Shown: piece after piece, positions 5,541 to 44,987 of the stretch
Layout of the letters: each line of letters begins with the position of its first letter
Numbering within the stretch: position 1 is the first letter of the stretch
Source of the DNA: an uncultured bacterium
GTDB taxonomy: Bacteria > Actinomycetota > Actinomycetes > JAVEEB01
NCBI GenBank assembly: GCA_964236265.1
Contig: CAXSDE010000001.1
Span: 84,614 to 148,613 of the forward strand
Direction of reading: 5' to 3'
DNA length: 64,000 bases
Translations under genes and position numbers: made by a program
The notes under the pieces: model-generated
Seen by the model: the letters and a program-made list of their open reading frames with translations, nothing else
Databases searched by the model: none
What the model was told of the DNA's origin: nothing

Positions 5541-5585
5541 GGCGCACGGCGTGCCCTCACGGTGCCGCGGAGTGCCGCACCGGGT

Positions 5586-6772: not shown

Positions 6773-6882
6773 GCGGGCCGAGGAAACCCGGTAACGTGGA
6801 TCCCAGCGGCGGCAGGTCCGTCGCTATTCTTGTGACCTGCGACGGTCGGGGCCGGTATGCCTCGTTTCAAGGGGGTCTGACC

Positions 6883-7092
6883 ATGGGGCGCGGCCGAGCC
6901 AAGGCCAAGCAGACGAAGGTCGCCCGGGAGCTCAAATACAGCTCCGGTGGCACCGACCTCGAGCGTCTGCGCGCTGAGTTGACCGTGCCCGGCTCCGTGC
7001 CGGGCCTCGGTCCGGCCGACGACATCCTGGACGACGAGGACGACGAGGACGACGACGAGGACGACGACGAGGACGAGGACGAGGACGAGTAG
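6883..7092 (+). CDS. DUF3073-like small protein with a poly-acidic tail.
   Basis: MGRGRAKAKQTKVARELKYSSGGTDLERLRAEL... followed by a (D/E)n tail encoded by a gacgag/gaggac repeat at 7021-7089. Confidence 0.65.
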   Translation: MGRGRAKAKQTKVARELKYSSGGTDLERLRAELTVPGSVPGLGPADDILDDEDDEDDDEDDDEDEDEDE

Positions 7093-7187
7093 GGCTGCCA
7101 GTCCTCGTTCGGCGGCTTCCTGGTCCCTTCGGCTGGCCGAGGGGACTAGGGACGCAGAGGGCCCTCCTGCCTCTGGTGCGGCGTGTA

Positions 7188-27284: not shown

Positions 27285-27773
27285 TCAGCCGTAGGCGGGG
27301 CGCGCCGTCGCGGGGCGGTCGCGGTCCTCCTGGTCGAGGCGCTTGCCGATCGCATCCGGCGACGACCAGAGCAGAGCCTTCTCCATGTGGACGATCGTGC
27401 CGGCCTCCGGCCTGTTGCTGAAGGTGATCGTGTCGACGAGGTGCTGCATCAACAGCATGCCGCGGCCCTGCTCCGCCGTCGGCGGAGCGGTCAGCTCGGC
27501 CAGTGACGACGAGTCGAAGCCGTGCCCGGCGTCCACGACCTCGATGACGCACCGCTCGCCGTCGATGCCGGCGGAAACGAAATAGTCGTCGCCGCTGGCC
27601 GCATGGAGCAGCACGTTGGTGCACGCCTCGGACAAGGCGGTCTCGATGTCCTCGATGCACTCCTCGGCGACCTCGAGGGTGCGCAGCGACTGCGTCGTGA
27701 GATGCCGGATGACGGACACGGACACGGAGTCGCGCGGCAGCGACAGGCTGACCTTGATCTCCACGGGCGGCAC
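27285..27773 (-). CDS. Anti-sigma regulatory factor / Ser kinase (HATPase_c_2, RsbW/SpoIIAB-like), inserted between purS and purQ.
   Basis: ...TALSEACTNVLLHAASGDDYFVSAGIDGERCVIEVVDAGHGF...EQGRGMLLMQHLVDTITF... is a Bergerat-fold kinase signature. Confidence 0.7.
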   Translation of the reverse strand: MPPVEIKVSLSLPRDSVSVSVIRHLTTQSLRTLEVAEECIEDIETALSEACTNVLLHAASGDDYFVSAGIDGERCVIEVVDAGHGFDSSSLAELTAPPTAEQGRGMLLMQHLVDTITFSNRPEAGTIVHMEKALLWSSPDAIGKRLDQEDRDRPATARPAYG

Positions 27774-28276: not shown

Positions 28277-28570
28277 ATGTCGAACGTCAAGGTCACTTAC
28301 CAGGAAATGCGCACCGCCGGTGACAAGCTCAACACCGGCAAGGACGAGATCTTCCAGAACCTCGACCACCTCAAGCGCGAGATCGAGAACCTGCTGCAGG
28401 CGGGCTACGTCACCAGCAACTCCTCCGGCAAGTTCCAGCACTCCTACGAGACGTTCAACACGGGTGCTCGCGCCGTGCTCGAGGGACTGACGGAGATGTC
28501 CGGCTATCTGCACACGGCGGCGCACACGTTCGAGGAAGCCGACACGTTGCTCGCGGGCAAGCTCGCCTAG
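28277..28570 (+). CDS. WXG100/ESAT-6-like small helical protein (97 aa). The canonical W-x-G is replaced by Y-V-T...G. Monocistronic.
   Basis: MSNVKVTYQEMRTAGDKLNTGKDEIFQNLDHLKREIENLLQAGYVTSNSSGKFQHSYETFNTGARAVLEGLTEMSGYLHTAAHTFEEADTLLAGKLA has a helix-turn-helix hairpin pattern like EsxA/YukE. Strong RBS (aaggagacagtcATG). A perfect terminator lies 26 nt downstream. Confidence 0.55.
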   Translation: MSNVKVTYQEMRTAGDKLNTGKDEIFQNLDHLKREIENLLQAGYVTSNSSGKFQHSYETFNTGARAVLEGLTEMSGYLHTAAHTFEEADTLLAGKLA

Positions 28571-28772: not shown

Positions 28773-29333
28773 TCAGCGCGGCGGGTACTTAGCCGCCAGC
28801 TTCCGAATCGTTGTCATATTGCGCGCGGTGCCCTCGCCGTTGACGGACAGTCGGCGTACGACGGAGGGCGGCAACGTGGTGTCCGTCATCCGGCCGTGAC
28901 GCAGCCAGTAGAACTCCCGCTGACCGAAGGCGAACCGGTCCTCGTCGTTTGCCGCACCGAGGAGTGCATCGCGGAGGCTCGCGTCCGGCGCCACGCGAAG
29001 GAAGGTGACGTGCAGGGCGTGAGTGTCGTCGCGGTCGACGCCCGGAAAGGGGTCGTACGCCGCGATGGCCGCGAGCTCGCTCTCGGTGCGCAGGAAGGTC
29101 GCCACGGAAAAACCGAGCGCCGCGTGCAGCACACGTTCCAGAGCGACCTCGAGAGCGTCCGACCTCTCGCGGGACCCCGTTGACGCGAGGATGTTGCCGC
29201 TGGCAAGGAAGGTTTCGACGCCCGTGAATCCGGCGGCCTCGAACGGCGCGACGAAGTCGGCCTTCCTCACGTTCCGGCCGCGGACGTTGATGCCGCGCAG
29301 GAACGCCACGTAACGAACCGTCATGCGAGCCAT
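28773..29333 (-). CDS. DUF1697-family protein.
   Basis: MARMTVRYVAFLRGINVRGRNVRKADFVAPFEAAGFTGVETFLASGNILAS... matches DUF1697 N-termini. The longer ORF-track N-terminal extension is translated from the intergenic repeats and is unlikely to be real. Confidence 0.7.
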   Translation of the reverse strand: MARMTVRYVAFLRGINVRGRNVRKADFVAPFEAAGFTGVETFLASGNILASTGSRERSDALEVALERVLHAALGFSVATFLRTESELAAIAAYDPFPGVDRDDTHALHVTFLRVAPDASLRDALLGAANDEDRFAFGQREFYWLRHGRMTDTTLPPSVVRRLSVNGEGTARNMTTIRKLAAKYPPR

Positions 29334-29366
29334 GCTGCCAGGATCGCCCGACGACGCCAGGCGCGG

Positions 29367-29429
29367 GACGTGCCGACAGGCGCGGCGGACGTGCCGGCAG
29401 GCGGGCCGGACGTGCCGGCAGGGGGGCCG
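29367..29429. repeat. Three tandem 21-bp direct repeats (ggacgtgccg[a/g]cagg[c/g]g[c/g]gg[c]c) in the divergent DUF1697 / pilin-operon promoter region.
   Basis: Seen directly. A 21-bp period is two helical turns. About 150 bp upstream of the pilin-like gene 1 start. Confidence 0.75.
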
Positions 29430-29576
29430 TGGGTGGCGAGCGGCGGCGCGATCAAGCGCGGGCAGGCTCGAGCGGGCCAAAGATTACTCCGAACGCTGCT
29501 AAAGCGCTCTGATGGCTGGGCCGACCTTCAACTCACGTGCGCCCGGGATTGACCCGGCCGCGCTGGAGGGAGTCCC

Positions 29577-31013
29577 GTGCTTGCGCGCCTGCGTTCGAGG
29601 CTCGACGACGACGGCTTCACGCTGGTCGAAGTCATGATCTCGCTCGTCATCTTCGCCCTGATCAGCACCGTCGCCGCGGTTGGTCTGCTCTCCAACCTCC
29701 GCTCCGCCGGGTCCAACCGCGCCCGCGTGACGGCCGCTGACCTGGCTTTGAAGGAGATCGAGACCGTCCGCTCAGCCTTCATGTCTCAGGCTCAGCAAGC
29801 CGGGCCCACGACCGTCCTGCAAAACCTCGTCGAGAACCCGCAGCCGAACGGCACCGAAGGCGGCCCGACGATGGACACCGTGGTCCAGGGCCGCGCGTAC
29901 AAGGTGTGGCGTGACGCGGAATGGGAGCCCCTCAACGACACCGCCGGGCCGTGCGACGGCTTGGCCGGCGGTGCGAGCAAGCCACTGGCCTATCTGCGGG
30001 TCACGGTCACCGTCGTCTGGGCCAACATGGGTTCGACGACACCAGTCACCAACACGACCCTGTTGACGCCGCCACTGGGCACATACAAGGACGGGCAGGG
30101 TCACCTCAAGGTGAAGGTGACCGACATCAACGCGGCCCCGTTGACCAACATCGACGTGAACGTCTATCAGACGACCCCGAAAGTGCTCGTCCAGACAGGC
30201 GCCACTGGCCCGGACGGCTGCGCGTTCTTCGCGTACCTGACTCCGGGCAACTACACGGTCGAGGTGACCAAGCCGGGCTACGTCACGACCGACTGGCTCA
30301 ACCTGTTCAGCTACCCCACGAGCGTCACCGCCAACAACGTGACCTCGGTGCCGGTCAGTTATACGCCGCAAGCCGACCTTCAGCTGGCGTTCGACCCAGC
30401 GGCCGTCCCCACGCCCTACGCGGCGCCCGTCAACGCCACCATGAGTTACTACAGCCCCAACCTTCCGGTGACGGGTTCCCCCACGTGGACGGGCTGGCAG
30501 CGTGCACGCTCGACACTCCCGGCACCGACGCTGCCGCTCTTGCACCCATGGCCCGACTCGTACGGCGTCGCGGCGTGGGCCGGTGACTGCTACGACTCGG
30601 ACCCCGGCTTCTACCCTCCTGCGTCCCGGCAGAAGTTCGTGCCCGTCGTCGGCAGCCCGATGAGCACGCCCGTCACGGGCGCCCTCGTCGCCGTGAAGAT
30701 CAGCGGGGCCGCCATCGGACAGACGTTCTATGCGGAACATGCCAAGTTCATACCGGTCACACCTCCGACATCGCCCGTCACATACACGACCACCCTGGCG
30801 TGCCCCGCGACAGCGGCCGCCAACGACACTCTCGGGACCGCCATGGGCGAGATCCTCACGTTCCCGGCCGGCACGGTCGCGAGCGGCACCACCGCAGCCA
30901 ACATCCTGCTCCCGTACGGCATCTGGACTATCCGGTCCACGACGGGCAACAAGGTAGTCACGGTCACCGTTACTCCCACCAGCACCTACCCGATGGCGGT
31001 GACCCTCACATGA
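29577..31013 (+). CDS. Large prepilin-type N-terminal cleavage/methylation domain protein (478 aa; modular pseudopilin-like with beta-sandwich/CarboxypepD_reg-like modules).
   Basis: N-terminus MLARLRSRLDDDG|FTLVEVMISLVIFALISTVAAVGLL has a positive leader, G at -1, F at +1, E at +5 and a 20-aa hydrophobic helix, which is a class-III (type IV prepilin) signal. GTG start with GGAGGGA RBS. HLKVKVTD...GCAFFAYLTPGNYTVEVTKPGYV is a Cna-B/CarboxypepD_reg-like segment. Confidence 0.75.
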   Translation: MLARLRSRLDDDGFTLVEVMISLVIFALISTVAAVGLLSNLRSAGSNRARVTAADLALKEIETVRSAFMSQAQQAGPTTVLQNLVENPQPNGTEGGPTMDTVVQGRAYKVWRDAEWEPLNDTAGPCDGLAGGASKPLAYLRVTVTVVWANMGSTTPVTNTTLLTPPLGTYKDGQGHLKVKVTDINAAPLTNIDVNVYQTTPKVLVQTGATGPDGCAFFAYLTPGNYTVEVTKPGYVTTDWLNLFSYPTSVTANNVTSVPVSYTPQADLQLAFDPAAVPTPYAAPVNATMSYYSPNLPVTGSPTWTGWQRARSTLPAPTLPLLHPWPDSYGVAAWAGDCYDSDPGFYPPASRQKFVPVVGSPMSTPVTGALVAVKISGAAIGQTFYAEHAKFIPVTPPTSPVTYTTTLACPATAAANDTLGTAMGEILTFPAGTVASGTTAANILLPYGIWTIRSTTGNKVVTVTVTPTSTYPMAVTLT

Positions 31014-31768
31014 TGCGGCTGATCCAGCGGGCACAGAAGGACGATGGCGGCTTCAGCCTCGTCGAGTTGCTCATCTCGATGACCATCTTCTCCGTCCTGA
31101 TGGGCATGGTCTTCACCGTCCTCATCACGACGCAGAAGCAGGTCGCGGGCGCCGGCGTCCGGCTGGACGACATCGACCAGGGCCGCATGGCGCTGGATGT
31201 GCTGTCGCGGACCTTGCGCACCGCCGTCGAACCGGCGCAGCTGCAGGTCTTCTGCACGACGTGCGGCGGTTCCGGAACGGCCGCGGGTGCAACAGCGATC
31301 ACCGACGCGCAGCAGCTGACGATCACTCTCTACTCCAACACGGACTCGGCGGCCGGCCCGAACCTGATCACGTTCTCGGTCCAGTACGACAGCTCGTTGA
31401 AGATGACGACGCTGACGAAGTCGACCCAACCTCCGGACGTGGGATCAGCGCCGAACTACATCTACACGACATGCACACCGGGCCCTGGGTGTTCGAAGCG
31501 GGTAATGACCTTGGTCAAGGGGGTCACATTCCCGGTGGGCGCCCCGTCTTTCTTCCAGTATTTCGACAACAAGGGCAGCGATATCACGCCGGTGAGCGCC
31601 GGCACGAGCCTGACCCTGAGCCAGCTGATCACCATCGACTCGGTCGGCATCAACATGACCGTCGACACGCCGGACAATTTCAAGGCCGGGCCGACCACGA
31701 TCTACAGCCGCGTCGGCCTTCCCAACTCCGGGACGGGCGTCCTCGTCCTTCCCACCGCGACATCATGA
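31010..31768 (+). CDS. Prepilin-type N-terminal domain protein 2 (252 aa), translationally coupled.
   Basis: MMRLIQRAQKDDGG|FSLVELLISMTIFSVLMGMVFTVLI with G-F-x-x-x-E. The ATG overlaps the gene-1 stop (ATGATG). Confidence 0.75.
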   Translation: MMRLIQRAQKDDGGFSLVELLISMTIFSVLMGMVFTVLITTQKQVAGAGVRLDDIDQGRMALDVLSRTLRTAVEPAQLQVFCTTCGGSGTAAGATAITDAQQLTITLYSNTDSAAGPNLITFSVQYDSSLKMTTLTKSTQPPDVGSAPNYIYTTCTPGPGCSKRVMTLVKGVTFPVGAPSFFQYFDNKGSDITPVSAGTSLTLSQLITIDSVGINMTVDTPDNFKAGPTTIYSRVGLPNSGTGVLVLPTATS

Positions 31769-33753
31769 GGGCCTCTATGAGAATCGGTTGGATAGCGCGA
31801 CGGATCGACGCGGCTCGCGGTGACTCCGGTGTCGCCATCGTGCTCGTGGTCGGCGTCGGCATGGTCGTGTCGATGCTGCTTCTCTCCCTGACGGCGTACA
31901 CGATTCTGTCCGTGTCGCACTCACGGCAGGAGCAGGACACGCAGGCGGCGCTATCCGCCGCCCAAGCTGGAGTGGACGACTACCTCAGCCGGCTCAACGC
32001 CAACAACACCTACTGGCAGGTGCCCATCTCGCCGGCGCCGAACCAGTGCGTCGACAATGTGGCCATCCGTACGATCGGCGATGCCTGCGGCGACATAAAG
32101 ACCGGCTGGGCGCCGATCTCGGGTCAGCAGTACACGCCGACGACCGGCAGCACCACGCTCGTCAGCTGCTCCGTCGCCGACTCGGCCGGCAACTTCGCCG
32201 CGCCGTGCGGGGCGTTCCACTACGACGTGGACATCTCGCAGACGATCGCTACCGGGGCCATCAACCTCACGTCGACGGGCAAGGCGCACGGCAAGACGCG
32301 AAGCGTGAAGGTCGTCGTGCGCCGGCAGAGCTTCGGCGACTTCATGTATTACACCGACCTCGAGACGAGCGACCCCGGCAACCCCTTTTCCTACGACGAC
32401 TCCGTGCCGACGCCCAACACCGACCAGTGCTACCAGCACGTCTGGGACACGCCGACCCGGCCGACCTCGTACGTAGTGGCGCCGGCCGGGTCGACCGAGG
32501 GGGCCACCAACTCGGGCTTTACGTGCGATGACATCACGTTTAACGGCGGCGACGTTCTCAATGGGCCGATCCACTCCAACGACGCCATCCGCGTCGGCAC
32601 GGCGACGTTCAACGGACCCGTCACGACGGCGTGGCCGCGGTGCGCACCCAACGCCCTCGGTGTCGCGCCGGGCGTGTCCTACTGTTACCGCGACGCCGTC
32701 GGCACCGCGACGTTCAACAAGAGCATCAAGTACGTCACGCCGCTGTTGATGCCGCCGACACCGGTCGACCTGCGCAAGCAGACGGACCCCGCACAGGTGA
32801 CAAACCCCGGCTGCATGTACGAAGGTCCGACACGCATCCAGTTCCAGCCCGGCGGCTCCATGAAGGTGTGGAGTCCCTACACCCGCACGCTTAACTCAGG
32901 TTGCGGGTCAGTGAGCGGCTTCCAGACCAACCCGACGCAGCCGCAGACGATCACGCCCCCGGCCAACAACGTCATCTACGTCGACCCGTCACCGGCCAGC
33001 GTCGGAGCGACCAACGGCCCGTGCCCGGCAGGCTTCGTCGGTGGGTTGCCGGTGACCCCGACAACCGGCGGCACCGGCAGCACGACCGGTGACATCAACG
33101 CAATCTGGGGGGACTACGACTGCACCCAGGGCACGCTCTACGTCGACGGCACCTTCAACGGCCGCATGACCGTCGGATCCTCGGCCAACATCATCATCGT
33201 CGGTGACCTGAAGTACGACACCAGCGCGGCCGGCAACGACAGCCTCGGCCTCGTGGCCCAGACGAGCGTGGAGATCTACCACCCCGTGCGCTGCCAGACC
33301 TGGTACAACGTCGACTCGGCCAGCCCGCCGCACAAGGCATGCCTCCCGAACAATTCCGGTGGCAACAGCTCGGAGATCGCGCGCAATGCCGGTGCCGGGG
33401 GACCGCTGCCCGGCACGCCGACCCTGAGCGGCTACTTCGCCAACCCCATCGTCAACGCCGCCATGCTGTCGCTGCAGCACAGCTTCGTGGTGCAGGCCTA
33501 CAACCTCGGGACCGCGTCGAACCTCGGCTCGGGCGGTCTGTCCGTGTTCGGCTCGATCGCGCAGAAGTTCCGCGGCGCGGTCGCGACGAGCAACAGTTCC
33601 GGCACCATCGTCACCGGCTACAAGAAGGTGTACACGTACGACAACCGCTTGAAGTTCGCGCCGCCGCCCTACTACCTTGACCCGGTTGCGTCGAAGTACA
33701 TCTCGGCGGTGTTTTCGGAGATTCCGCCGGCGTACAAGCCGACCGATCCGTAG
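31765..33753 (+). CDS. Large (662 aa) PilX_N/TadG-like pseudopilin-associated protein, Gly/Thr/Asn-rich, possibly beta-helical. The third gene of the operon. Possible alternative start at 31777.
   Basis: N-terminus MRASMRIGWIARRIDAARGDSGVAIVLVVGVGMVVSMLLLSLTAYTIL resembles PilX_N/TadG N-termini. The ATG overlaps the gene-2 stop. The rest is a long low-hydrophobicity G/T/S/N-rich region. Confidence 0.6.
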   Translation: MRASMRIGWIARRIDAARGDSGVAIVLVVGVGMVVSMLLLSLTAYTILSVSHSRQEQDTQAALSAAQAGVDDYLSRLNANNTYWQVPISPAPNQCVDNVAIRTIGDACGDIKTGWAPISGQQYTPTTGSTTLVSCSVADSAGNFAAPCGAFHYDVDISQTIATGAINLTSTGKAHGKTRSVKVVVRRQSFGDFMYYTDLETSDPGNPFSYDDSVPTPNTDQCYQHVWDTPTRPTSYVVAPAGSTEGATNSGFTCDDITFNGGDVLNGPIHSNDAIRVGTATFNGPVTTAWPRCAPNALGVAPGVSYCYRDAVGTATFNKSIKYVTPLLMPPTPVDLRKQTDPAQVTNPGCMYEGPTRIQFQPGGSMKVWSPYTRTLNSGCGSVSGFQTNPTQPQTITPPANNVIYVDPSPASVGATNGPCPAGFVGGLPVTPTTGGTGSTTGDINAIWGDYDCTQGTLYVDGTFNGRMTVGSSANIIIVGDLKYDTSAAGNDSLGLVAQTSVEIYHPVRCQTWYNVDSASPPHKACLPNNSGGNSSEIARNAGAGGPLPGTPTLSGYFANPIVNAAMLSLQHSFVVQAYNLGTASNLGSGGLSVFGSIAQKFRGAVATSNSSGTIVTGYKKVYTYDNRLKFAPPPYYLDPVASKYISAVFSEIPPAYKPTDP

Positions 33754-33774: not shown

Positions 33775-33816
33775 GAGAGCCGCCGGCATGATGCCGGCGG
33801 CTCTCGTCGTCTTTCC
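33775..33816 (+). terminator. Rho-independent terminator of the pilin-like operon.
   Basis: Perfect 14-bp stem gagagccgccggca / tgccggcggctctc, 3-nt loop, then gtcgtctttcc. Confidence 0.55.
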
Positions 33817-33880: not shown

Positions 33881-36800
33881 CTAGCCCGTCGCGATGTCCC
33901 CGGCCGTCGTCACCGGCGCCTGCACCGTGACCAGCTCGCCGTCGCCGCTGTGCAGATACCCGCGGCCCGCGCTGACTGGTCCTCCGATGATGCTGCGCGG
34001 CAGCCGCACCCCGATGAGGTCGCCGTCACCGATGCCCTGCGGGGACAGCAGAATGCCGGTGCGGCCGCGCTTCATGTCGACCTGCCATCCGCTGAAGCCG
34101 GTGCACACGTCGTCGGTGCCGCCGGCAACGACGACAGCCTGACCACGTTCCGCTCCGTGCCGGATGACGTCCCGCAACACGTCGGCCGCCCCGCACTCCT
34201 TCAGCAACTCTGCGTCGTCGACCAGCACCACGACAGGACCGGTCCCGCCCGCGAGCACCGTGGCCAGTTCCGCCGGAAGGACGGAGCCCTCGTACGACGC
34301 CAGCACGCCGGGGTGACCCGCGAGCTCCCGCAGCGGCGACGGCTTCGGCGTGGCCAGGACCACCGATGCCCCGCGCGCGAGCAACGACACCGCCATCGTC
34401 ACCAGCAGGCCGCTGCGCCCCGACCGGGGCGCGCCGCCGATGATGAACGTCGGCGTGCGCGCGAGGTCGGCGCCGTACGCCGTCCACTCGTCGCCCCCGA
34501 CTCCCACCAGCGACCACAACGGCGACGTCGTGTCGACGAGCGTGTCCGCCTCGGCGTAGCTGAGCTTCGTCGGGAGCAGCTCCACCCGGAACGGCCGCAA
34601 CCCGCGCGGGACGTCCGGCTCCCGCTCGCGGGCCTCCGCCGCGATCTCCCGCAGCGCCGCCGCCTGCCCGGCGCCCGTGCCGTCCTTGTCGAGCAAGGCG
34701 ACCTGGATCTCGCGGCCGGTCTCGGCGCGGAACGCGCGGCCGGCGGGCGGGTCGTCCGGCATCGACCGGGGACTGAGCGCCGCGAGGGTGTAGTCGGCCC
34801 GGTCGGCCATGCGGAACGTCAGCCGGTCCTCGCTCATCGCCGCGATCCGCCCCGACAGCACTGTGCGGTCGCCGACGATGACAACGTGCACGCCGACGGT
34901 CGCGCCCTCGCGGAGCAGCTGCGTGATCGCGTCGGTCAGCGCCCCGCCGTCGAGCTCCCCGAGCGTCGAGACGAAGCCCTCCCAGCGGTCGAGCAGCACC
35001 ACGACATGCGGCAACCGCTCGCCCGCCGCGCTCGCCGCCCGCTGTTCGCCGATGTCGGACACACCCAGCCGGCCGAGGATCTCCTGCCGCCGCGCGACCT
35101 CCCCGACGAGGCGGCCCAACACGCGCCGGGCGCGCTCCGGTTGCGTACGCGACACGACGGCGCCGCAGTGCGGTAGATCCGCCAGCGGCAGCAGGGCGCC
35201 GTTGCCGCAGTCGAGGCCGTAGATGTGCACGTCGGCGGCCGAGTGCCGGCGCCCGATCGAGCCCGCGATCGTCCGCAGCAATTGGGAGCGCCCACTCCGC
35301 GGTGCCCCCGCCACCAGCAGGTGCCCGAACGTGGCGAAGTCGAGCACGGCCGCGCGCTGGAGCTGCTCCGCCGGCAGGTCCTCGATCCCGAACGGCACGG
35401 TCGCGAGCCCCCCGACCGCGAGCCCCCCGACCGCGAGCCCCCCGACCGCGAGCCCCCCGACCGCCGACCGCGGCGCCGCCGGCCGCGGCGCCGCAATGTC
35501 ATCGAGCACCACATCGGTGCCGAGGGCCGCCAACCACGGGCTGTGCTGCGGCTCCAGACGGAGTTGCTCGTTGGCCGCGCAGATCGCCTCGACCACTGCG
35601 GTCAGATCGGTCTCGGCCTCCTCGTCCGCCCGGACCGTCGGCCGCGCCGGCGCCGGGCGCCCGAGGGCGGCCACGTCCACGTCCACGACGAACGGGTCGG
35701 CGACCACCCGCGCCACCGCGCCCGGTCGCCGCCCACCGACGCGCCCGCTCTGGAACGGCAGGAGCGACGCGTGCCCCAGCCGCGCATACGCGCGCCCGGG
35801 CGTCGACTTCGCGATGCGCGCGGCCTCACCGGTCCCGATGACGTCCGCGCTCTCGCTCACATCCGTGACGCGCAGGGCGATGCGCAGGTTGGTGTTGGCG
35901 CGGATCTCCGGCGAGACGACACCCGACGGCCGCTGCGTGGCGAGGATGAGGTGGATGCCGAGCGAGCGACCGCGTTGGGCGATATTCACCAAGCCTGTCA
36001 CGAAATCCGGGAGGTCGCGCACCATCGACGCGAACTCGTCGATGACGATCAGCAGCCGTGGCATGGCCTCCAGGTACGGCATCGTCCGCATTCCCGCGAC
36101 GTAGTCCTCGATGTCCTTGGCGCCGACCGCCGCCAGCATGTGTTCCCGGCGCTTCAGCTCCGCCGACAGGGATTCCAACGCGCGGCCCACGAGGTGCGCG
36201 TCGAGGTCGGTGACCATGCCGACGGTGTGCGGCAGCCGTACACAATCCTTGAACGCACTGCCGCCCTTGTAGTCGATGAGGACGAACGTCATCGCGTCCG
36301 GTTTGTTGGCCACCGCCAGCGACGCGACGATCGACTGCAGCAGCTCGGACTTGCCGGAGCCCGTCGTGCCGGCGATCAGCCCGTGCGGGCCGTCGCGCGA
36401 CAGGTCGAGGGAGAACGCGCCGTCCATCCCCTCGCCGATGACGAATTCGGTCGACCGGCCGCCCGAGAGCCACCGGGCCGCGATGTCGGGCGCCGTCGGC
36501 GGGTCGAGCTGCAACACGTCGAGCAAGCGGCTGGACGACGGGATCGCCCCGCCGCTCTCGTCCGCGCTGGTGTCGCGGATCGGCGCCAGCGCGCGGGCCA
36601 CCCGTTCGGCCCACCCGGCGGGCACCTCGTCTGGCCGCACGTCCTCGACCGTCTCCGCCCGCATCTGCCGCAGGGTGAGCCGCCCGCTCCCGGGATCGAC
36701 GGTGACGACGGCCTGGCACTCCTCGGGCAGCAACCGCTCGTCGGCGTCGAGGCAGACGACGAACATCCCGACCGACGGGCCGTCGCGCAGCAACTGCGCG

Positions 36801-38299
36801 ACACCCGGCAGCGAACGCAGCCGCCGCGCGCCGTCGAGCACCACCACGATGTCCGTCGCGAACGTCACCGTCGACGACTCCCGCGCCGCGTCGCGCCGCG
36901 CGGTCAGCATCGTGATGAGCTCGCCGATCCGGCGCCCGACGGTCTCGTTGTCGGAGCCGATCAGCGCGATCGTGTCCTGCCCGTCGGCTGGCCGCGTGTG
37001 CGGCAGCCAGCGCACCCAGGCCCACTCGCCGCGGGACTGCGAGTCGGTCAGCACGCACAGCTGCACGTCGCGCGGGCTGTGCAGGACACCCAGCTGGGTG
37101 ACGAGGCAGCGCGTCACCGCGGTCGCGAGCGGTCCGCGGCCGGCGATGCCGAGCACGCCACGTTCGGTCAGCGACACCGGCACCGGCACCGCGTGCGCGA
37201 GCGGGTGCTGCTCGCGCCGATGGTCGTCCTGCGCCGGGTCCTCGACCGTGACGTCGCTCCGGAGGTCGGCGGTGCCGACACGCAGGACGAGATAGTCGGG
37301 GTCGTGCCGCCGCCGCTCCCACAGCCGCCGGCGCGGACCCACCGCAGTGAGCAGCAGCTCGGCGGGGTCGGGGCATTCGGCCCGCCGCGCCAATCGCTCG
37401 AGCCCCAGCGCCTCCTGGACATCCGCCTCGATGCGCGCCGTCGTCTCCCGGAACTGCGCCAGTTGTTTCCGGTACGACGACCTCCCGTGGCGACGGTCGG
37501 CGAAGAAGTTGGCCACGAGCGCCACGGGGCTGAGCAGACCCATCAACAGATAGCGCGGCTGGTGCATCACGGTCGCCATGACACCGGCGCCGATCAGCGG
37601 CACGAGGGCCATGATGATCGGGATGGGGCGGCGGTCGTTCTCGCGCGGCTGGGACGGCAGCTTGAACGCGGTCTGGCGTTTCGGCGGGTGCAGGCGCGGC
37701 GGGCGGTTGTAATCCAGGCCCGCGCCGTCGGCGGAGACCACGAGCGCGGCGTCGGGCGCGCTGGGCCGGCCGAGCTCGAGCAGCACACTGCCGAGGTCGA
37801 CGACGTCGCCCGGCTCCCAGGGGACCGCCCCGGTCACCTCGGCGTCCTCCAGAGCGATCTGCGCGCCGGCGAACGGCGTCAGCGCGCAGCGCCCGTCGGA
37901 GGCGACCGCGAGGACGAACTCGTGCGAGAGCGCCCCCGGCGCGCTCAGCACCACTCCGCAGTCGGCAGCAGCGCCGACGTCGTATTCCCCCGGCGCGAGG
38001 CGGTGGACGAGCCCCGCGTCCGGACCGCCGACGATCCGCAACTCGATCACGCCCGGCGGCTCGGTCGGGACGCACCCGGCGGCCGTGCCGAAGCTGACGA
38101 TGCAGCCGTCCCGCAGCCGCGAGTCGGGCACCGGCATCGACGGGTCGAGGAGCACCCCGTCGACGTACGCCGGGCGGGACTCGACTCCCAGCCGAGCCGC
38201 GAGCGCAGCCACCGCGAGACCGACCGTCGAGCCGTCGTCGAGGTCGATGAGCACGTCCTCGCGCGCGCCGCCGACCGCATCGACGGCCGTGAGAGTCAT
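33881..38299 (-). CDS. FtsK/SpoIIIE-family triple-ATPase, EssC/EccC-like (type VII secretion motor architecture), with an N-terminal ubiquitin-like + FHA module and a TM segment.
   Basis: 1472 aa from ATG 38299 (MTLTAVDAVGG...). FHA-like block IELRIVGGPDAGLVHRLAPGEYDVGAAADCGVVL...SHEFVLAV. TM helix IPIIMALVPLIGAGVMATVM. Three P-loops: GTTGSGKSELL plus LLIVIDEF, GAPRSGRSQLL and GAPRSGRSGLL. Confidence 0.85.
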   Translation of the reverse strand: MTLTAVDAVGGAREDVLIDLDDGSTVGLAVAALAARLGVESRPAYVDGVLLDPSMPVPDSRLRDGCIVSFGTAAGCVPTEPPGVIELRIVGGPDAGLVHRLAPGEYDVGAAADCGVVLSAPGALSHEFVLAVASDGRCALTPFAGAQIALEDAEVTGAVPWEPGDVVDLGSVLLELGRPSAPDAALVVSADGAGLDYNRPPRLHPPKRQTAFKLPSQPRENDRRPIPIIMALVPLIGAGVMATVMHQPRYLLMGLLSPVALVANFFADRRHGRSSYRKQLAQFRETTARIEADVQEALGLERLARRAECPDPAELLLTAVGPRRRLWERRRHDPDYLVLRVGTADLRSDVTVEDPAQDDHRREQHPLAHAVPVPVSLTERGVLGIAGRGPLATAVTRCLVTQLGVLHSPRDVQLCVLTDSQSRGEWAWVRWLPHTRPADGQDTIALIGSDNETVGRRIGELITMLTARRDAARESSTVTFATDIVVVLDGARRLRSLPGVAQLLRDGPSVGMFVVCLDADERLLPEECQAVVTVDPGSGRLTLRQMRAETVEDVRPDEVPAGWAERVARALAPIRDTSADESGGAIPSSSRLLDVLQLDPPTAPDIAARWLSGGRSTEFVIGEGMDGAFSLDLSRDGPHGLIAGTTGSGKSELLQSIVASLAVANKPDAMTFVLIDYKGGSAFKDCVRLPHTVGMVTDLDAHLVGRALESLSAELKRREHMLAAVGAKDIEDYVAGMRTMPYLEAMPRLLIVIDEFASMVRDLPDFVTGLVNIAQRGRSLGIHLILATQRPSGVVSPEIRANTNLRIALRVTDVSESADVIGTGEAARIAKSTPGRAYARLGHASLLPFQSGRVGGRRPGAVARVVADPFVVDVDVAALGRPAPARPTVRADEEAETDLTAVVEAICAANEQLRLEPQHSPWLAALGTDVVLDDIAAPRPAAPRSAVGGLAVGGLAVGGLAVGGLATVPFGIEDLPAEQLQRAAVLDFATFGHLLVAGAPRSGRSQLLRTIAGSIGRRHSAADVHIYGLDCGNGALLPLADLPHCGAVVSRTQPERARRVLGRLVGEVARRQEILGRLGVSDIGEQRAASAAGERLPHVVVLLDRWEGFVSTLGELDGGALTDAITQLLREGATVGVHVVIVGDRTVLSGRIAAMSEDRLTFRMADRADYTLAALSPRSMPDDPPAGRAFRAETGREIQVALLDKDGTGAGQAAALREIAAEAREREPDVPRGLRPFRVELLPTKLSYAEADTLVDTTSPLWSLVGVGGDEWTAYGADLARTPTFIIGGAPRSGRSGLLVTMAVSLLARGASVVLATPKPSPLRELAGHPGVLASYEGSVLPAELATVLAGGTGPVVVLVDDAELLKECGAADVLRDVIRHGAERGQAVVVAGGTDDVCTGFSGWQVDMKRGRTGILLSPQGIGDGDLIGVRLPRSIIGGPVSAGRGYLHSGDGELVTVQAPVTTAGDIATG
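35401..35470 (-). repeat. In-frame 15-bp tandem repeat (x4) encoding (GGLAV)4 in the linker between ATPase domains 1 and 2 of the EssC-like protein.
   Basis: cgcgagccccccgac x4 on the plus strand. The protein reads SAVGGLAVGGLAVGGLAVGGLATVPF. Confidence 0.8.
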
Positions 38300-38482
38300 G
38301 CGCACCCGCGCCACGCTAGCCGCCGCGAGCGCCCAGGGCCGCATTCTGTCCACAACGCCCGGGGGCCGCAGATCAAGCCATGGCCGGCAGACCGGCCCGG
38401 GCCGAGCTGAGTGCCCGCGACCGCACAGGCCGAATAGGGTGTGTCCCCGACAAGCACGCGCGACGCAGGAGGGCGGACCGAA

Positions 38483-38971
38483 ATGGCCAGCGAGGACCCG
38501 ACTGTCCCTAGTGCCGATGACGTCCTGACCCGGATCGGGCAGGCGGTCGCGGCGGCCGGCGGCGGGGACACGGACGGGGCACGCGCGACGCTCGAGGCGT
38601 TGTGGGTCCAGGCGCGCGGGCCGACAGCCGACGCCCTCCATCAGTTGGCCATCGCGCACGCCTTGGCCGACCTGCAGGACGACCCGCGCGAGGAGCTGGC
38701 GTGGGACCTGCTGGCGCTGCAGGCGGCCGCGGACGTCACCGACGAGCGTGTCGCCCGTTCCGGAATGCCGGGGCGCGCCGCCGCCCTCTACCCGTCACTG
38801 CACCACAACCTCGGCGAGGACTACCGCACACTCGGCGAGCTGGAGGCCGCCCGCCGCCACGCCGCTCTGGGTCTGGACGCCGTGGTCCACCTGGGCGACG
38901 ACGGCTACAGCCGGATGATCACGGCCGGCCTGCAACGCCTGCGCGACAGGCTGGCCGAGCTGCCTGAGTAG
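38483..38971 (+). CDS. Hypothetical helical protein, divergent from the EssC-like gene.
   Basis: MASEDPTVPSADDVLTRIGQAVAAAG... is Ala/Leu-rich and helical. RBS GGAGGGCGGA upstream. No domain recognised. Confidence 0.45.
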   Translation: MASEDPTVPSADDVLTRIGQAVAAAGGGDTDGARATLEALWVQARGPTADALHQLAIAHALADLQDDPREELAWDLLALQAAADVTDERVARSGMPGRAAALYPSLHHNLGEDYRTLGELEAARRHAALGLDAVVHLGDDGYSRMITAGLQRLRDRLAELPE

Positions 38972-39332: not shown

Positions 39333-40331
39333 TCAATCGGTGACCGCGTGGCGGCCGCGTCCGCCCGCGTTGAGCTGATCGATGATCGCGCCGATGTATT
39401 GCCGTCGGAACGCGGTCATCTTCGCCGAAAACGGCGGGAGCAGCAGCACGCCCGCAGCGGTGAGTGCGTCGGCTTCGTCGAGGGCCGCGAGCCAACGCTT
39501 CGCCGCACCGGCGTCGGCGTCGTGCATCAGCAGGTGCAGGGTCGTCTGCAGGTTGTGGTGGCGCGCAGCGCTGACTGTCTGGTTGAACATCTGTCGGCGC
39601 GGTTCGTGAAACTCCTCGTTGGCCCGTTGCAGCTGTCCGGCGAGTGCCAGAACGCCCGGCCCGGACCGTCTTGCGCTGTCGAGCAACGTCAGCTGCAGCT
39701 CACGCACGAGGTCGTCGGTGTGCGCCCGGCTCTCGAGCATTGCCTGCACGTCGATGTCGATGGCGACCTCGATGGCCTCATCGGGCAGGTGGTGCTTCGG
39801 CCACGGTTCGGCTCCCCACAGGTCGAGCAGATCCCCGTCGGCGTCCTCCGGCGTGGCTGCGGCCGGATGGTCGATCTGCGCCCACACGACTTTGCCGCTG
39901 TCGCCGAGCGGTTCGACGCCCCACGTGGCGCTGAGCCGCTGCACGAGAAGGAGCCCGCGGCCGCTCGTTGCGGTCGGCCGCACCGGAGTCCAGCGCGGCA
40001 GCTTGTCCGAGGCGTCCGTGACACTCAGGCGGACGCCGGCCCCGCATTCCTCGACGGACAAGGCCATCTCGGTGCGGGCATGGATGACCGCGTTCGCGAC
40101 CAACTCCGTCACGATGATGGCCGCGTCGTTCATCAGGTCCTCGCGGCCGACCTCGGACAGGGCCTTCGCCACCGCCTGCCGAGCGAGCTGCACACTCTCC
40201 GGCACTGGCGCCAGATGGAGCAACACGTGGCCGACCTCCGTCCCTCGCTCGTCCGTTCGCTGTGCGACGGAGCCTAACGCCGACCACCGGCGCAGCCTCG
40301 GCGGTGCAGCGACCCGCCGCCGGTCAATCAA
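39333..40331 (-). CDS. ATP-binding anti-sigma-factor-like protein (HATPase_c_2 N-terminal domain) with a roughly 190-aa C-terminal domain of unknown function. Start uncertain.
   Basis: ...LARQAVAKALSEVGREDLMNDAAIIVTELVANAVIHARTEMALSVEECGAGVRLSVTDAS...SGRGLLLVQRLSATWGVE... is the Bergerat-fold kinase signature. Confidence 0.55.
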   Translation of the reverse strand: MIDRRRVAAPPRLRRWSALGSVAQRTDERGTEVGHVLLHLAPVPESVQLARQAVAKALSEVGREDLMNDAAIIVTELVANAVIHARTEMALSVEECGAGVRLSVTDASDKLPRWTPVRPTATSGRGLLLVQRLSATWGVEPLGDSGKVVWAQIDHPAAATPEDADGDLLDLWGAEPWPKHHLPDEAIEVAIDIDVQAMLESRAHTDDLVRELQLTLLDSARRSGPGVLALAGQLQRANEEFHEPRRQMFNQTVSAARHHNLQTTLHLLMHDADAGAAKRWLAALDEADALTAAGVLLLPPFSAKMTAFRRQYIGAIIDQLNAGGRGRHAVTD

Positions 40332-41373: not shown

Positions 41374-44300
41374 TTATCGAGAGGCGGGCCGCGCGAGCGG
41401 CACGGCCGCCGACAACACTGCCGCCGCGACGTCGACAGCCGGGACGGGCCGGGAGAAGAGGAACCCCTGGCCGTAGGCGCAGCCGAACGACGCGAGCATC
41501 TCCCGCTCCGCGGCGTGCTCGATGCCCTCGGCGATCACATCGACGCCGAGGCTCGCGCCCATCATCACGATCGTGCGCGCCAGCTCGGCACTCCGCGAGC
41601 CGTTGCTCATCGCGACGACGAACGACCGGTCGATCTTCAGGCCGTCGATGCGGAACCGGTGCAGCGCGGCCAACGAGGAGTAACCGGTCCCGAAATCGTC
41701 GATGTGCACCTCGTGGCCGCGCTGGTGCATCGCCTCGACGATCCGTTCCGCGTGTCGGTCGTTGTGCATGATGACGCCCTCGGTGATTTCGAGGACGAGC
41801 GCTCGCGGCTCGAGAGCATGCTCCGCGATGCACGCGTCGAGGTGGGTGAGCACGCCCGCGTCCCAGAACTCCTTGTTGGACAGGTTGATGCTCACGGGCA
41901 GGCCGGCCGCGAGGTGGTTGTCGTCGCGCCAGCTCGCGACCTGGCGGCACGCCTCGTCGACCACCCAGCGGCCGATCGGCACGATGAGCGCCGTGTCCTC
42001 CGCGACCGGCAGGAACTCGCCCGGGGGCATGAGACCGCCTCGGCCGTCGGGCCAGCGGATGAGCGCTTCGAAGCCCCGCACCTCGCCGCTGGCGATGCTG
42101 ACGATCGGTTGGTAGTGGAGCTCGAAATCGCCGCGCTCGACGGCGACCCGCAGCTGCGTCTCGATCGACATCCGGTTGACGAGCCGCAGCCGCATCGTCG
42201 CGTCGAACGTCGCGTGCCTGCCCCGGCCGGCGGTCTTCGCCCGATACATGGCGATGTCCGCGTCGCGGAGCATGTCCTCGGCGCTCTCGTGCTGCTGTTG
42301 TGTGCTGGTGATCCCGATGCTCGCGGAGATCGTCACCAGGTGGCCGCCGATGTCGAACGGCACGGCCAGCGCTGCCTGCAGGCGCCGGGTGATGGCCGGC
42401 ACGTCGGCAGTCGACGCGAGGTCGTCGAGGACGATGACGAACTCGTCGCCACCGATCCGGGCGGCCGTGTCGCCGACGCGGACGAACGACTGCAGACGTT
42501 CGGCGACACCGATGAGCAACTTGTCGCCCGCGACATGGCCCAGGCTGTCGTTGATGACCTTGAACCCGTCGAGGTCGATGAACAGCACCGCGAAGCGGTA
42601 GCGGTCATGCCGCTTCGTGCGGCGGATGGCGACGCCGAGCCGGTCGAGCAGGAGCGCGCGGTTGGGCAGGTTGGTGAGGCTGTCGTAGAGGGCCTGGCGC
42701 CGCAGCCGGTCCTCGAGGGTGCGTCGGTCGTCGACGTCGGTGAGGGAGCCGACGATCCGCGTCACCGCGCCGCCGGTGGTGACAGCGAGGCCACGGCAAC
42801 GGATCCAGCGCGTGTCGCCGTCATCCGTGGTGATGCGGTGCTCGTAGTCGAGGCTGTCGGTGTGGCCCGCGACCTGCCGGTCGATGACGGCGCGCAGACC
42901 CGCTGCGTCGTCCGGGTGGACGCGGTTGAGCCAGGCGGTGATGTGCGTCGCGGGGACGGTGGTGCTGCCGAGGACAGCCAGACTGCGGTCGGAGTAGAAG
43001 ACGGTGCCGGTCGTCAGGTCCCAATCCCACAGGCCGTCGTTGGCGGCGGCCGCCGCGAGGGCATACCGCTGCTCGCTGCGCCCGATGTCGGCTGCCAGCC
43101 GCTGCTCGCGGTCCAGCGATTCGGCAAGGGACACCTGCTGGCTGCGCAGGGACTGCCAGACATCCTCGTGGTCGAGGGCGACGCCGACGAGGGCGGCCCA
43201 CTGGTGGAACGTCTCGTGTCCTGTCGCGTCCCGGTTTTCCACGGATGCCACGACCGCCAGGAGAGCGTCCTCGGTCCCGCCCGTCGTGATCGGGATGACG
43301 AGGACGATGCCATCGGGATGAGCGAGCGCCCGCTCGATCAGCGCCGCCGACGGGAAGTCACGCTCAGCGACATCGCTGCCGGCGAGTATCGACAGCTCGT
43401 CGGCCCGGTCGTACGCGCTGTGGATTCGCAGGACCGGGTCGCCGCTGTCGCTGCGCAGGGCCAGCACGCCCGCCTCGGCACTGGTGGCGCCGAGCCAGCT
43501 GAGGCCGCTGCCCAACCGCCCTCCGCGCAGGAGGGACATGCTCACCTCGTACTGCGTCGTCAGCGAGTCCTGCAGGTGCCGCCAACCGAGGAACTGCTCG
43601 CGCGCTCCCGCGCCGGCCAGGCCGAGGCTGACCTCGACGAGGAGCTCTTCGAGTCGGCGCTCCGGGTCCTCGACGAGGCTGATACCTGCCTCGGCCGCCG
43701 CGGCGAGCCAGCGGCGGGCGCCGTCGCGGAGCAGGCCCGTCACCTGGGCGAGGTCGTCGAGCGGACGGGTGACCGGCCACAGCTTGTCGACCGCGTCACG
43801 CAGGAGCCACAACGTGGCCTCGTCAGCGCTGCGAAGGGCACTCGTGAGAGCCTCGCCGAGCAGGCCGAGCACCGCGTCGCTGCCCTCGGCGGGCGTCGGC
43901 TGCGTCGCGAGCAACGCCCCGGCCAGCGGGCGGAGGGCGACCGCGCCGGCGGTGGCGTCGTGCGGAGCCGGCGTGCCGACGGGCCCCGCGTGGGCGCCCG
44001 CGCACCCACACGAGTGCCGCGCGATGAACCGCGTGGGGATCAGGTGGCACGCGTAGGCCTCCCCCGACCCGTCGATCTGGCGGATCAGCAGGTCGGCAGC
44101 GGCCCAGCCGATCCGTGCGAAGTCCTGTGCGACGGTCGACAGCGACGGCCGGGCGTGCCGGGCCTGATCACCGTCGTCGAACCCGACGATCGCCTGGCCC
44201 TGCGGCAGCAGGACACCCGCGGCGGCGAGCACCCGCATGATGCCGACCGCGTTGAGGTCGGTGCCGGCGACGACGGCGGTCGACGGCAGGCCGGCCGCGA

Positions 44301-44847
44301 GCATGCCGGCGCCCGCCGCCTCACCGCCCGCATGGACCATGTCGTCCACGTCGTACACGAGGCTGGGATCGAAGTCGATGCCGTGCTCGGCGAGCGCGGC
44401 AGTATAAGCGCGGAAGCGCTCGAGGATGTCGTGCTCCCGCAGCATTCCGGCGAAGGCGATGCGCCGGTGGCCGTGCTCGACGAGGTGGCGGACCACCTGC
44501 TCGATGCCGCCGGCGTTGTCCGGCAGGACGACGGGCGCAGGCAGTGTCGGCACCTGGTGACTGACCAGCACGACGGGCTTCCCGGCGTCGATGATCGAGT
44601 GGAGCGAGGCATCGCTGGCGGACGCGATGATCGACACGAAGCCGGTCACGTGGTCCCACCCGATCGGGCGGATCGGCGGCCACAGCTGGCTGTCGGGTGG
44701 CGCATCGGATCCCGCCGGCTGGCTCTGGAAGGCGACCGTGGCATAGCCGTCGGCGGCCGCGCGGGCACGGATTCCGTTGATCACGCCGCCGAAGTAGAAG
44801 CCACTGCCGTAGGGCGACAGCACGCCTATCGCCCGCAGCTTCGCCAT
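41374..44847 (-). CDS. Multidomain c-di-GMP signalling protein: HTH-less LacI-type periplasmic-binding-protein-like sugar-binding domain, then GAF/PAS region, then GGDEF (intact), then EAL (intact).
   Basis: 1157 aa from ATG 44847 (MAKLRAIGVLSPYGSGFYFGGVINGI...VVLVSHQ...RRIAFAGML..., a LacI-family ligand-binding core with no preceding HTH). ...RIGGDEFVIV... and ...FEALIRWPDG...DDFGTGYSSL. Confidence 0.85.
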   Translation of the reverse strand: MAKLRAIGVLSPYGSGFYFGGVINGIRARAAADGYATVAFQSQPAGSDAPPDSQLWPPIRPIGWDHVTGFVSIIASASDASLHSIIDAGKPVVLVSHQVPTLPAPVVLPDNAGGIEQVVRHLVEHGHRRIAFAGMLREHDILERFRAYTAALAEHGIDFDPSLVYDVDDMVHAGGEAAGAGMLAAGLPSTAVVAGTDLNAVGIMRVLAAAGVLLPQGQAIVGFDDGDQARHARPSLSTVAQDFARIGWAAADLLIRQIDGSGEAYACHLIPTRFIARHSCGCAGAHAGPVGTPAPHDATAGAVALRPLAGALLATQPTPAEGSDAVLGLLGEALTSALRSADEATLWLLRDAVDKLWPVTRPLDDLAQVTGLLRDGARRWLAAAAEAGISLVEDPERRLEELLVEVSLGLAGAGAREQFLGWRHLQDSLTTQYEVSMSLLRGGRLGSGLSWLGATSAEAGVLALRSDSGDPVLRIHSAYDRADELSILAGSDVAERDFPSAALIERALAHPDGIVLVIPITTGGTEDALLAVVASVENRDATGHETFHQWAALVGVALDHEDVWQSLRSQQVSLAESLDREQRLAADIGRSEQRYALAAAAANDGLWDWDLTTGTVFYSDRSLAVLGSTTVPATHITAWLNRVHPDDAAGLRAVIDRQVAGHTDSLDYEHRITTDDGDTRWIRCRGLAVTTGGAVTRIVGSLTDVDDRRTLEDRLRRQALYDSLTNLPNRALLLDRLGVAIRRTKRHDRYRFAVLFIDLDGFKVINDSLGHVAGDKLLIGVAERLQSFVRVGDTAARIGGDEFVIVLDDLASTADVPAITRRLQAALAVPFDIGGHLVTISASIGITSTQQQHESAEDMLRDADIAMYRAKTAGRGRHATFDATMRLRLVNRMSIETQLRVAVERGDFELHYQPIVSIASGEVRGFEALIRWPDGRGGLMPPGEFLPVAEDTALIVPIGRWVVDEACRQVASWRDDNHLAAGLPVSINLSNKEFWDAGVLTHLDACIAEHALEPRALVLEITEGVIMHNDRHAERIVEAMHQRGHEVHIDDFGTGYSSLAALHRFRIDGLKIDRSFVVAMSNGSRSAELARTIVMMGASLGVDVIAEGIEHAAEREMLASFGCAYGQGFLFSRPVPAVDVAAAVLSAAVPLARPASR

Positions 44848-44987
44848 GTGGCCCGTGCTCCGCCCAGTTGGAGTGTCGGAGTCCATATCGGCCGGACTAT
44901 TGCGGCGGTGAACATTCCACCGCTTCATTTCGCGCGGGCTGCGGTCGGCGTGCGGGAAGGCCGCCTCCCAGCCCGACGGGTGACGCG

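Follow-up and report, generated by a model that had tools for sequence, protein, structure and literature searches.

A probable tip and priming complex of an actinobacterial type IV pilus, encoded by a three-gene minor-pilin operon apart from pilus machinery genes

Background

The tip of a type IV pilus carries a minor-pilin complex, which is capped by a subunit without Glu5, and assembly starts there (PMC10191384). Here we describe an operon of three genes (genes 1, 2 and 3; together the trio) that probably encodes a complex of this type. It lies in a 64-kb stretch of DNA (the window; contig CAXSDE010000001.1, G+C content approximately 70%) from an uncultured actinobacterium, and attention was drawn to it by a sequence-only reading of the window. 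The purL product of the window belongs to a 90%-identity cluster in which the members with names come from Frankiales/Frankiaceae metagenome-assembled genomes.

Several described systems are available for comparison. In type II secretion and in diderm type IVa pili the corresponding sets, GspHIJK and FimU-PilVWX (PDB 3CI0, 5VTM), have four members, and the Glu5-less GspK carries an alpha-helical domain as an insert. In the competence pilus of Thermus thermophilus the tip is formed by four pilins of one locus, ComZ and PilA1-3 (PDB 6QVI; PMC6561018). ComZ combines a GspK-like pilin domain with a triangular solenoid, similar to that of ice-binding proteins, placed between the penultimate and last strands. 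Its leader is atypical and is missed by PilFind, it binds both a neighbouring GspI-like pilin and DNA, and a steric argument confines it to the pilus tip (PMC6561018).

In the monoderm Streptococcus sanguinis the HIJK set is replaced by a three-pilin operon, PilABC, comprising a subunit without Glu5 and two modular adhesins (PMC9934059). These two large pilins carry grafted binding or immunoglobulin (Ig)-like modules, and the three proteins are proposed to form a tip complex that is essential for assembly (PMC9934059, PMC8179133). Actinobacterial type IV pilus clusters include those for the zoospore pili of Actinoplanes missouriensis and those of Cellulomonadaceae, Sanguibacteraceae and other families, for which control by WhiG has been predicted (PMC12871210). 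We found no characterisation of the minor pilins of these clusters in the literature examined.

Results and discussion

Operon structure and prepilin leaders

The three open reading frames (ORFs) lie on one strand (+), are tightly coupled and are closed by a strong hairpin terminator (Table 1). All three are intact and show a bias in the G+C content of third codon positions (GC3), which in gene 1 reaches 0.86, a strong coding bias. It had been suggested that ATGA overlaps link all three genes. This is correct for genes 1 and 2. An ATGA is also present at the junction of genes 2 and 3 (31765-31768), but ATG 31777 is the better supported start of gene 3: the sequence GAGGG (31767-31771) is found five bases upstream and the start agrees with the database model P0001 (658 aa). 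Genes 2 and 3 would therefore be spaced by 8 nucleotides (nt), and the coupling is tight with either start.

Genes 1 and 2 encode prepilin leaders that score above the curated cut-offs of the hidden Markov models (HMMs) PF07963 (21.2 bits) and TIGR02532 (16.3 bits). Gene 1 obtains 30.1 and 28.2 bits, respectively, and gene 2 obtains 33.8 and 24.8 bits. The leader of gene 1 is MLARLRSRLDDDG/FTLVE (the slash marks the predicted cleavage site), with Gly13 and Glu18, and that of gene 2 is MMRLIQRAQKDDGG/FSLVE, in which Glu5 is also present. Gene 3 gives no match at all to either HMM. Its leader, which ends in ARGDSG/VAIVLVV, is basic, terminates in Gly and is followed by a hydrophobic helix with Leu at +5 instead of Glu.

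The same division is seen when the window is aligned with 13 homologous loci. Genes 1 and 2 have the pattern G/xxxxE in 14 of the 14 loci, while gene 3 has D/E-x-G followed by hydrophobic residues and possesses Glu5 in none. As judged from this alignment, the absence of Glu5 is a trait of the gene 3 family and, being of the GspK/PilX type, marks the predicted protein as a cap. The sequence-only reading had assigned canonical prepilin leaders to all three proteins; the assignment stands for genes 1 and 2 and must be withdrawn for gene 3.

The trio is conserved in actinobacteria

A word-indexed search with gene 3 returned 79 homologues, and every one that carries a source name is actinobacterial. 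The family becomes much larger in an exhaustive profile search, with 1326 clusters (50% identity) at E <= 1e-30 and 3340 at E <= 1e-10. At least six loci were confirmed by a profile scan of genome contigs. Counting near-identical duplicate contigs only once, we compared 17 distinct loci including the window. The order of the three genes is identical in all 17, all of which are actinobacterial.

In 10 of these loci the trio lies inside or adjoins a set of type IV pilus genes (Table 1), the typical full cluster being pilB-pilT-pilC-pilA-(gene 1-gene 2-gene 3)-pilD-pilM-pilN-pilO. Six loci (L001, L005, L007, L009, L017 and L018) have pilD directly 3' of the trio. This group includes L017 and L018 (46% identity), the closest relatives of the window with informative flanks. 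The recovered flanks of the remaining seven (up to 10 kb per side, shorter on the contigs of L010 and L020/L021) contain no machinery genes; these are the window itself, Sporichthya brevicatena (L003), L010, L011, L012, L016 and L020/L021. Thus, the window has the operon with several pilin genes, including a Glu5-less third gene, but not the pil linkage. Because the gene order is the same in 17 loci, 10 of them with pil genes, the trio is, on the evidence of gene neighbourhoods, a module conserved in actinobacterial type IV pili whose genes quite often lie apart from those of the machinery. A tip complex encoded without filament and motor had been considered unusual. This is not supported: the family is large and conserved, and six other loci show the trio with no machinery in the flank.

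Two other types of system were also considered and are rejected. A type II secretion pseudopilus is disfavoured since the clusters of the relatives include pilT and pilMNO and their hosts are monoderm. A ComG or Tad system is disfavoured since the relatives have genes of the type IVa pilus kind next to the trio.

Several loci contain additional genes. Directly 3' of gene 3 in L004 and L016 is a gene for an extracytoplasmic function (ECF)-type sigma factor (Sigma70_r2/r4_2, approximately 185 aa), which is not found at this position in the window. Both pilD and pilC of L004, a metagenomic contig, occur in two pieces, which may reflect a frameshift or an assembly error.

Gene 1 and gene 2

The predicted structure of the gene 1 protein starts with an alpha1 helix (residues approximately 16-69) and a small pilin sheet (approximately 99-163). 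These are followed by beta-sandwich modules of the CnaB/transthyretin-like type, one at approximately 175-272 and further ones towards the C-terminus. The 87 homologues have the same composition of N_methyl and CarboxypepD_reg domains, so that the Cna-B/CarboxypepD_reg-like module first proposed from the sequence is found again in both the model and the family. Gene 1 retains all 24 family-invariant columns. Its likeness to sortase-assembled CnaB pilins is limited to the CnaB-like fold. The C-terminus (...YPMAVTLT) has no LPXTG sorting signal, and the sole LPVTG is internal (approximately residue 297) and is not part of the family consensus. A sortase pilin is therefore rejected.

For gene 2, 16 homologues were obtained from the database together with others derived from the loci. 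They are conserved over their full length, with Gly14 and Glu19 invariant. N_methyl is matched by 26 of 27 family members (Pfam), and the only other matches are weak ones to ComGE, none of them significant. When the gene 2 profile is compared with the PDB, the only matches are to the N-terminal helix of pilins, apart from a spurious one to a designed PPR repeat protein. In these searches the prepilin N-terminus is the sole recognisable feature and the globular part has no recognisable relative.

Gene 3 is predicted to be a ComZ-like pilin

An AlphaFold2 model of gene 3, built from a 59-sequence alignment, has a predicted local distance difference test (pLDDT) score of 83.7 and a predicted template modelling (pTM) score of 0.80. 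In the 658-aa numbering it consists of an alpha1 helix (approximately 16-75), a four-strand pilin sheet (approximately 146-198), a triangular beta-solenoid of short parallel strands (approximately 250-620) and a final strand (approximately 641-649). According to the model, gene 3 is a GspK-like pilin domain into which a sizeable beta-solenoid is inserted ahead of the final strand. The sequence-only reading had noted a long Gly/Thr/Asn-rich, beta-helix-like region in gene 3.

Structure prediction followed by Foldseek had been proposed as a check. Thermus ComZ is the only significant PDB match to the model (E 1e-8, probability 1.00), and it shares the arrangement of a pilin domain with a solenoid before the last strand. 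The global TM-score between the two is low (0.22-0.27), and the likeness is thus one of domains and topology, not of rigid-body superposition. When the gene 3 profile (59 members) is compared with the PDB, no ComZ chain is found at E <= 1 and only chance matches to cupins appear (E approximately 0.06). Gene 3 likewise has no match to T2SSK (PF03934) or PilX_N (PF14341) at E <= 1 in Pfam and NCBIfam, although some Cellulomonas homologues carry the NCBI name 'pilus assembly PilX family protein'. The Glu5 absence and the pilin topology are shared with GspK and PilX, but what is inserted in gene 3 is a beta-solenoid, and the insertion point differs. In terms of its predicted structure, gene 3 is a protein that would work like a K subunit yet falls outside the GspK/PilX sequence families, and actinobacterial type IV pili appear to have a ComZ-like cap.

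Gene 3 matches DUF4900 weakly (E 0.038), and this domain is recorded for many of the homologues; we found no usable literature concerning it. All 34 family-invariant columns are retained.

The leaders and folds also bear on a different interpretation, in which the three proteins are adhesins of the CnaB and beta-helix types that are exported by Sec and anchored in the membrane, with N-termini that merely resemble prepilin leaders. The failure of gene 3 with the prepilin HMMs would agree with this, and adhesins that do not belong to pili often contain CnaB and beta-solenoid modules. However, genes 1 and 2 exceed the curated prepilin cut-offs, with Gly and Glu5 invariant in the family, and the model of gene 3 contains the pilin alpha1 helix and sheet with GspK-like topology. 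In addition, many genomes have the trio placed between pilA and pilD, and no C-terminal sortase signal is present (the LPVTG of gene 1 being internal, as described above). We consider such adhesins very improbable.

Comparison with described systems

Like PilA-PilB-PilC of S. sanguinis, the trio is an operon of exactly three minor pilins, one of which is Glu5-less and two of which are large and modular, and is attributed to a type IVa pilus of a monoderm host. The two sets are not related in sequence, and their Glu5-less members differ: this is the small GspI-like PilA in S. sanguinis, whereas here it is the largest protein, which is GspK/ComZ-like. The grafted modules are also different (vWA and lectin in S. 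sanguinis, CnaB-like and beta-solenoid in the trio). Compared with the Thermus locus, the trio has three pilins instead of four and, since the host is monoderm, no secretin to pass. Compared with GspHIJK and FimU-PilVWX, it also has one member fewer and there is no PilY1. Trios homologous to that of the window are found inside the actinobacterial pilus clusters of Cellulomonas, Sanguibacter and Modestobacter (L001, L007-L009), while that of the window is detached.

The trio fits both the pattern of a Glu5-less cap and the three-pilin pattern of PilABC, and gene 3 is therefore proposed as the cap, or first-in, subunit. Taken together, we think it likely that the three genes specify the minor pilins of a type IVa pilus in a monoderm actinobacterium, making up its three-subunit tip and priming complex, and that the machinery of this pilus is encoded elsewhere. 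The sequence-only reading had already favoured minor or tip pilins over filament-forming major pilins, and had drawn the analogy to the modular pilins of S. sanguinis and to the GspHIJK/PilVWX tip complex. Both proposals are supported, as is the first of its two options for the function, namely that a distant type IV pilus locus uses these proteins.

Absence of pilus machinery from the window

A number of observations weigh against this assignment. Pilus machinery, a major pilin and an A24 peptidase are all absent from the 64-kb window. At the sequence level no similarity of gene 3 to ComZ, GspK or PilX_N could be detected, and its global TM-score with ComZ is low. Moreover, experimental work on a member of the trio family was not found in the searchable literature.

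The first of these points was approached in three ways. The 30 ORFs around the operon include K+ transport, purine, cyclic di-GMP (c-di-GMP), catalase and ATP-binding cassette (ABC)-transport genes but none with T2SSE, T2SSF, A24 or PilM (Pfam). A tblastn analysis of the window with actinobacterial PilA, PilB, PilT, PilC, PilD, PilM, PilN and PilO gives a single match, between the N-terminal 58 residues of PilA and the prepilin leader of gene 1. Finally, a six-frame scan of the 64 kb for GxxxxE leaders identifies none besides genes 1 and 2. The statement that the operon comes with no major pilin, ATPase or peptidase consequently holds for the whole window, and a platform protein was not found either.

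If the machinery had been lost from the genome, the trio would be an orphan remnant, non-functional or decaying. The lack of machinery genes within 30 kb on either side is in keeping with such a loss. The genes themselves do not have the appearance of a remnant: the three ORFs are intact with strong GC3 coding bias, the family-invariant residues of genes 1 and 3 are all retained, and so are a Shine-Dalgarno sequence, a promoter-like motif and a terminator. The stand-alone arrangement has also been kept in a relative whose gene 3 is only approximately 60% identical, which argues for purifying selection. A remnant is accordingly quite unlikely.

A second possibility is that the genome has another trio inside its main pilus cluster and that the trio of the window is a paralogue of it, serving as an additional, alternative tip set. 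The same machine would thereby acquire a second specificity at the tip. Tandem pilin sets are seen in two of the related loci. The S. brevicatena contig (L003) contains a second pair resembling genes 2 and 3, and L017 contains a further N_methyl pilin and large ORFs upstream of the trio; the additional sets include a GspH-domain pilin. This suggests that there are several alternative minor-pilin sets per genome. The stand-alone trios of six other loci also point in this direction, as does the gene 3 of the window, which is 60-80 residues longer than most of its homologues. As far as the titles of papers indicate, Myxococcus and cyanobacteria provide precedents for multiple minor-pilin sets. 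On the other side, neither a second trio nor a pilus cluster occurs within the 64 kb. We regard an alternative set as a possibility to be held tentatively; it is a variant of the tip-complex assignment and does not contradict it.

The neighbouring EccC-like ATPase

The gene for an FtsK-type ATPase that follows the operon encodes, as judged by its domains, an EccC-like type VII secretion ATPase. The FHA-like and FtsK_SpoIIIE domains, together with a WXG100 gene, point to a type VII-like system. The WXG100 gene and the EccC-like gene flank the pilin operon and a DUF1697 gene, and the type VII-like locus therefore appears split.

It had been suggested that the trio might have a new role with this ATPase. 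In such a role the proteins could be substrates of a type VII-like system that includes WXG100, or could belong to its surface structure. The position of the two genes on either side of the operon is compatible with this. The adjacency is conserved in L020/L021, the closest relatives of the trio (gene 3 approximately 60% identical), where a convergent EccC also follows gene 3 and is 79% identical over its last 362 residues. The arrangement is thus stable within this clade. Nevertheless, the EccC-like gene of the window is convergent to gene 3 and is separated from it by the 14-bp-stem terminator. Adjacency of trio and EccC is restricted to the window and these two closest relatives: EccC or WXG100 was not found in the 15 more distant trio loci, 10 of which carry pil genes instead. 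The trio proteins have class III leaders and no type VII substrate features, and close relatives would be expected to show synteny simply through common descent. From these gene arrangements we attribute the adjacency to inherited synteny rather than to a functional link, and a joint role with the ATPase seems extremely improbable.

The EccC-like gene also contains a perfect 15-nt tandem repeat (4.2 copies), which encodes (GGLAV)x4 in the linker between the ATPase domains and could be a spacer of variable length.

A candidate WhiG promoter

The 96-bp region upstream of gene 1 includes the sequence TAAA-N16-GCCGA (29500-29524). It is identical to the WhiG2 query of a published survey, T(A/C)AA-N16-GCCGA within 200 bp of a start codon (PMC12871210). 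With the strict pattern TAAA-N15/16-GCCGA this is the single match in the 64 kb, both strands included, compared with 0.07 expected. The relaxed pattern T[AC]AA-N15-17-GCCGA is not above chance in the window alone (2 versus 1.7), and the promoter call accordingly depends on the strict match, on where it lies and on the pattern across loci. In 275 kb of distinct related loci the relaxed pattern occurs 23 times versus 7.6 +/- 2.6 in dinucleotide shuffles (approximately 3-fold). In the clustered loci the same motif class is found just upstream of pilT, pilA, pilM or pilB, and in the stand-alone loci L012 and L016 it lies 55-73 nt upstream of gene 1. The motif class is therefore common to the window and the actinobacterial pilus clusters. 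A scan for sigma-70 promoters upstream of the operon found nothing.

We infer that a promoter of the WhiG/sigma-28 type drives the gene 1 operon, and the motif is a plausible means of co-expressing a detached operon with distant machinery.

Approximately 70-140 nt upstream of the motif there is a 21-nt tandem repeat (about 3 copies, 90% match), which is located at or upstream of the 5' end of the DUF1697 ORF. The window also encodes two large proteins of c-di-GMP turnover, one with PAS-GGDEF-EAL and one with periplasmic-binding-PAS-GGDEF-EAL organisation. Should the operon be controlled by WhiG/RsiG (c-di-GMP), these proteins may be of relevance. Two genes with HATPase_c_2 (anti-sigma-factor-kinase-like) are also present, one of which sits between purQ and purS inside the purLQS cluster.

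Table 1. Positions of the features discussed, in the window unless a related locus (L number) is named
Feature	Position	Strand	Remarks
Candidate WhiG (sigma-28 family) promoter, TAAA-N16-GCCGACCT	29500-29527	+	Ends 50 nt upstream of gene 1 start codon
Shine-Dalgarno sequence of gene 1, GGAGGGAG	29565-29572	+	4 nt before GTG 29577, read from sequence
Gene 1, modular type IV minor pilin (putative)	29577-31013	+	478 aa, GTG start
Gene 2, type IV minor pilin (putative)	31010-31768	+	252 aa
Gene 3, Glu5-less cap pilin (putative)	31777-33753	+	658 aa; 662 aa if ATG 31765 is used
Intrinsic terminator, followed by T-rich GTCGTCTTTC	33775-33805	+	14-bp stem, 11 G-C pairs
purLQS cluster	Upstream side of operon		Neighbour
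WXG100 gene	28277-28570	+	Pfam
DUF1697 gene	28773-29480	-	Nearest upstream neighbour of the pilin operon
EccC-like ATPase gene	33881-38659	-	1592 aa; FHA-like N-terminus and two FtsK_SpoIIIE matches (Pfam)
15-nt tandem repeat in EccC-like gene	35402-35464
21-nt tandem repeat	29358-29429
HATPase_c_2 gene within purLQS cluster	27285-27773	-
HATPase_c_2 gene	39333-40331	-
PAS-GGDEF-EAL protein gene	3-1955	+
Periplasmic-binding-PAS-GGDEF-EAL protein gene	41374-45633	-
Trio linked to pil genes	L001 (Cellulomonas dongxiuzhuiae), L005, L007 (Sanguibacter inulinus), L008 (Cellulomonas rhizosphaerae), L009 (Modestobacter), L018
Trio linked to pil genes, short contig	L017		pilD directly after gene 3 is the only pil gene seen
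Trio linked to pil genes	L004, L013, L014		Divergent from or flanked by pilT, pilC, pilA, pilM
T[AC]AA-N15-17-GCCGA sites	L001 3838; L004 7756, 2795, 719; L005 3726; L007 1623, 7010; L008 4168; L012 7692; L013 1869; L014 7722, 14358, 17955; L016 1124; L018 6419		Upstream of pilT, pilA, pilM, pilB or gene 1
Second pair like genes 2 and 3	L003 142-2825		Within region 1-7656
Further N_methyl pilin and large ORFs	L017 1-3025		Upstream of trio
ECF-type sigma factor genes	L004 11870-12436; L016 5091-5636
pilD and pilC, each in two pieces	L004 763-1489; L004 4878-6099

Proposed mode of action

If the operon does encode a tip and priming complex, all three proteins would enter the membrane by way of the N-terminal hydrophobic helix and would be cleaved after the conserved Gly by a PilD (A24) prepilin peptidase encoded elsewhere. 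Gene 3 would be the first subunit in and would form the cap with its solenoid of approximately 370 residues, built like that of Thermus ComZ; lacking Glu5, it would allow no subunit to dock above it. Genes 2 and 1 would stack beneath it through contacts between Glu5 and the N-terminus, gene 1 contributing the CnaB-like beta-sandwich modules. The complex would then prime major-pilin polymerisation by the PilB/PilC/PilMNO machine and would remain at the tip of the pilus, and its solenoid and beta-sandwich modules may serve there as a binding surface. By analogy, the ligand might be DNA (as for ComZ) or a polysaccharide (as for the tapirins). Tight translational coupling would keep the subunits at a near-fixed stoichiometry, and the WhiG/sigma-28-type promoter probably ties their expression to that of the distant pilus genes.

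Conclusions

A broader hypothesis, which we advance as speculative and rather unlikely, extends this by analogy to the Actinomycetota as a whole. The ComZ-like beta-solenoid cap would be a tip receptor for extracellular DNA or, as in the tapirins, for plant or cell-wall polysaccharide, and the detached trios, under WhiG/c-di-GMP control, would be exchangeable cartridges that re-target a single pilus machine. If true, this would provide a pilus-based route for DNA uptake or substrate attachment in a phylum whose natural competence is poorly understood.

The operon of the window is no anomaly. It is an ordinary member of a large family and appears to have no functional tie to the type VII-like ATPase next to it. 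Three annotations of the 'hypothetical' or 'PulG-like' kind can be replaced by a specific, probable assignment: the tip and priming complex, capped by a ComZ-like beta-solenoid protein, of an actinobacterial type IV pilus. That the layout of three genes recurs supports the proposal, derived from S. sanguinis, that monoderm type IV pili have a simpler tip of three subunits.

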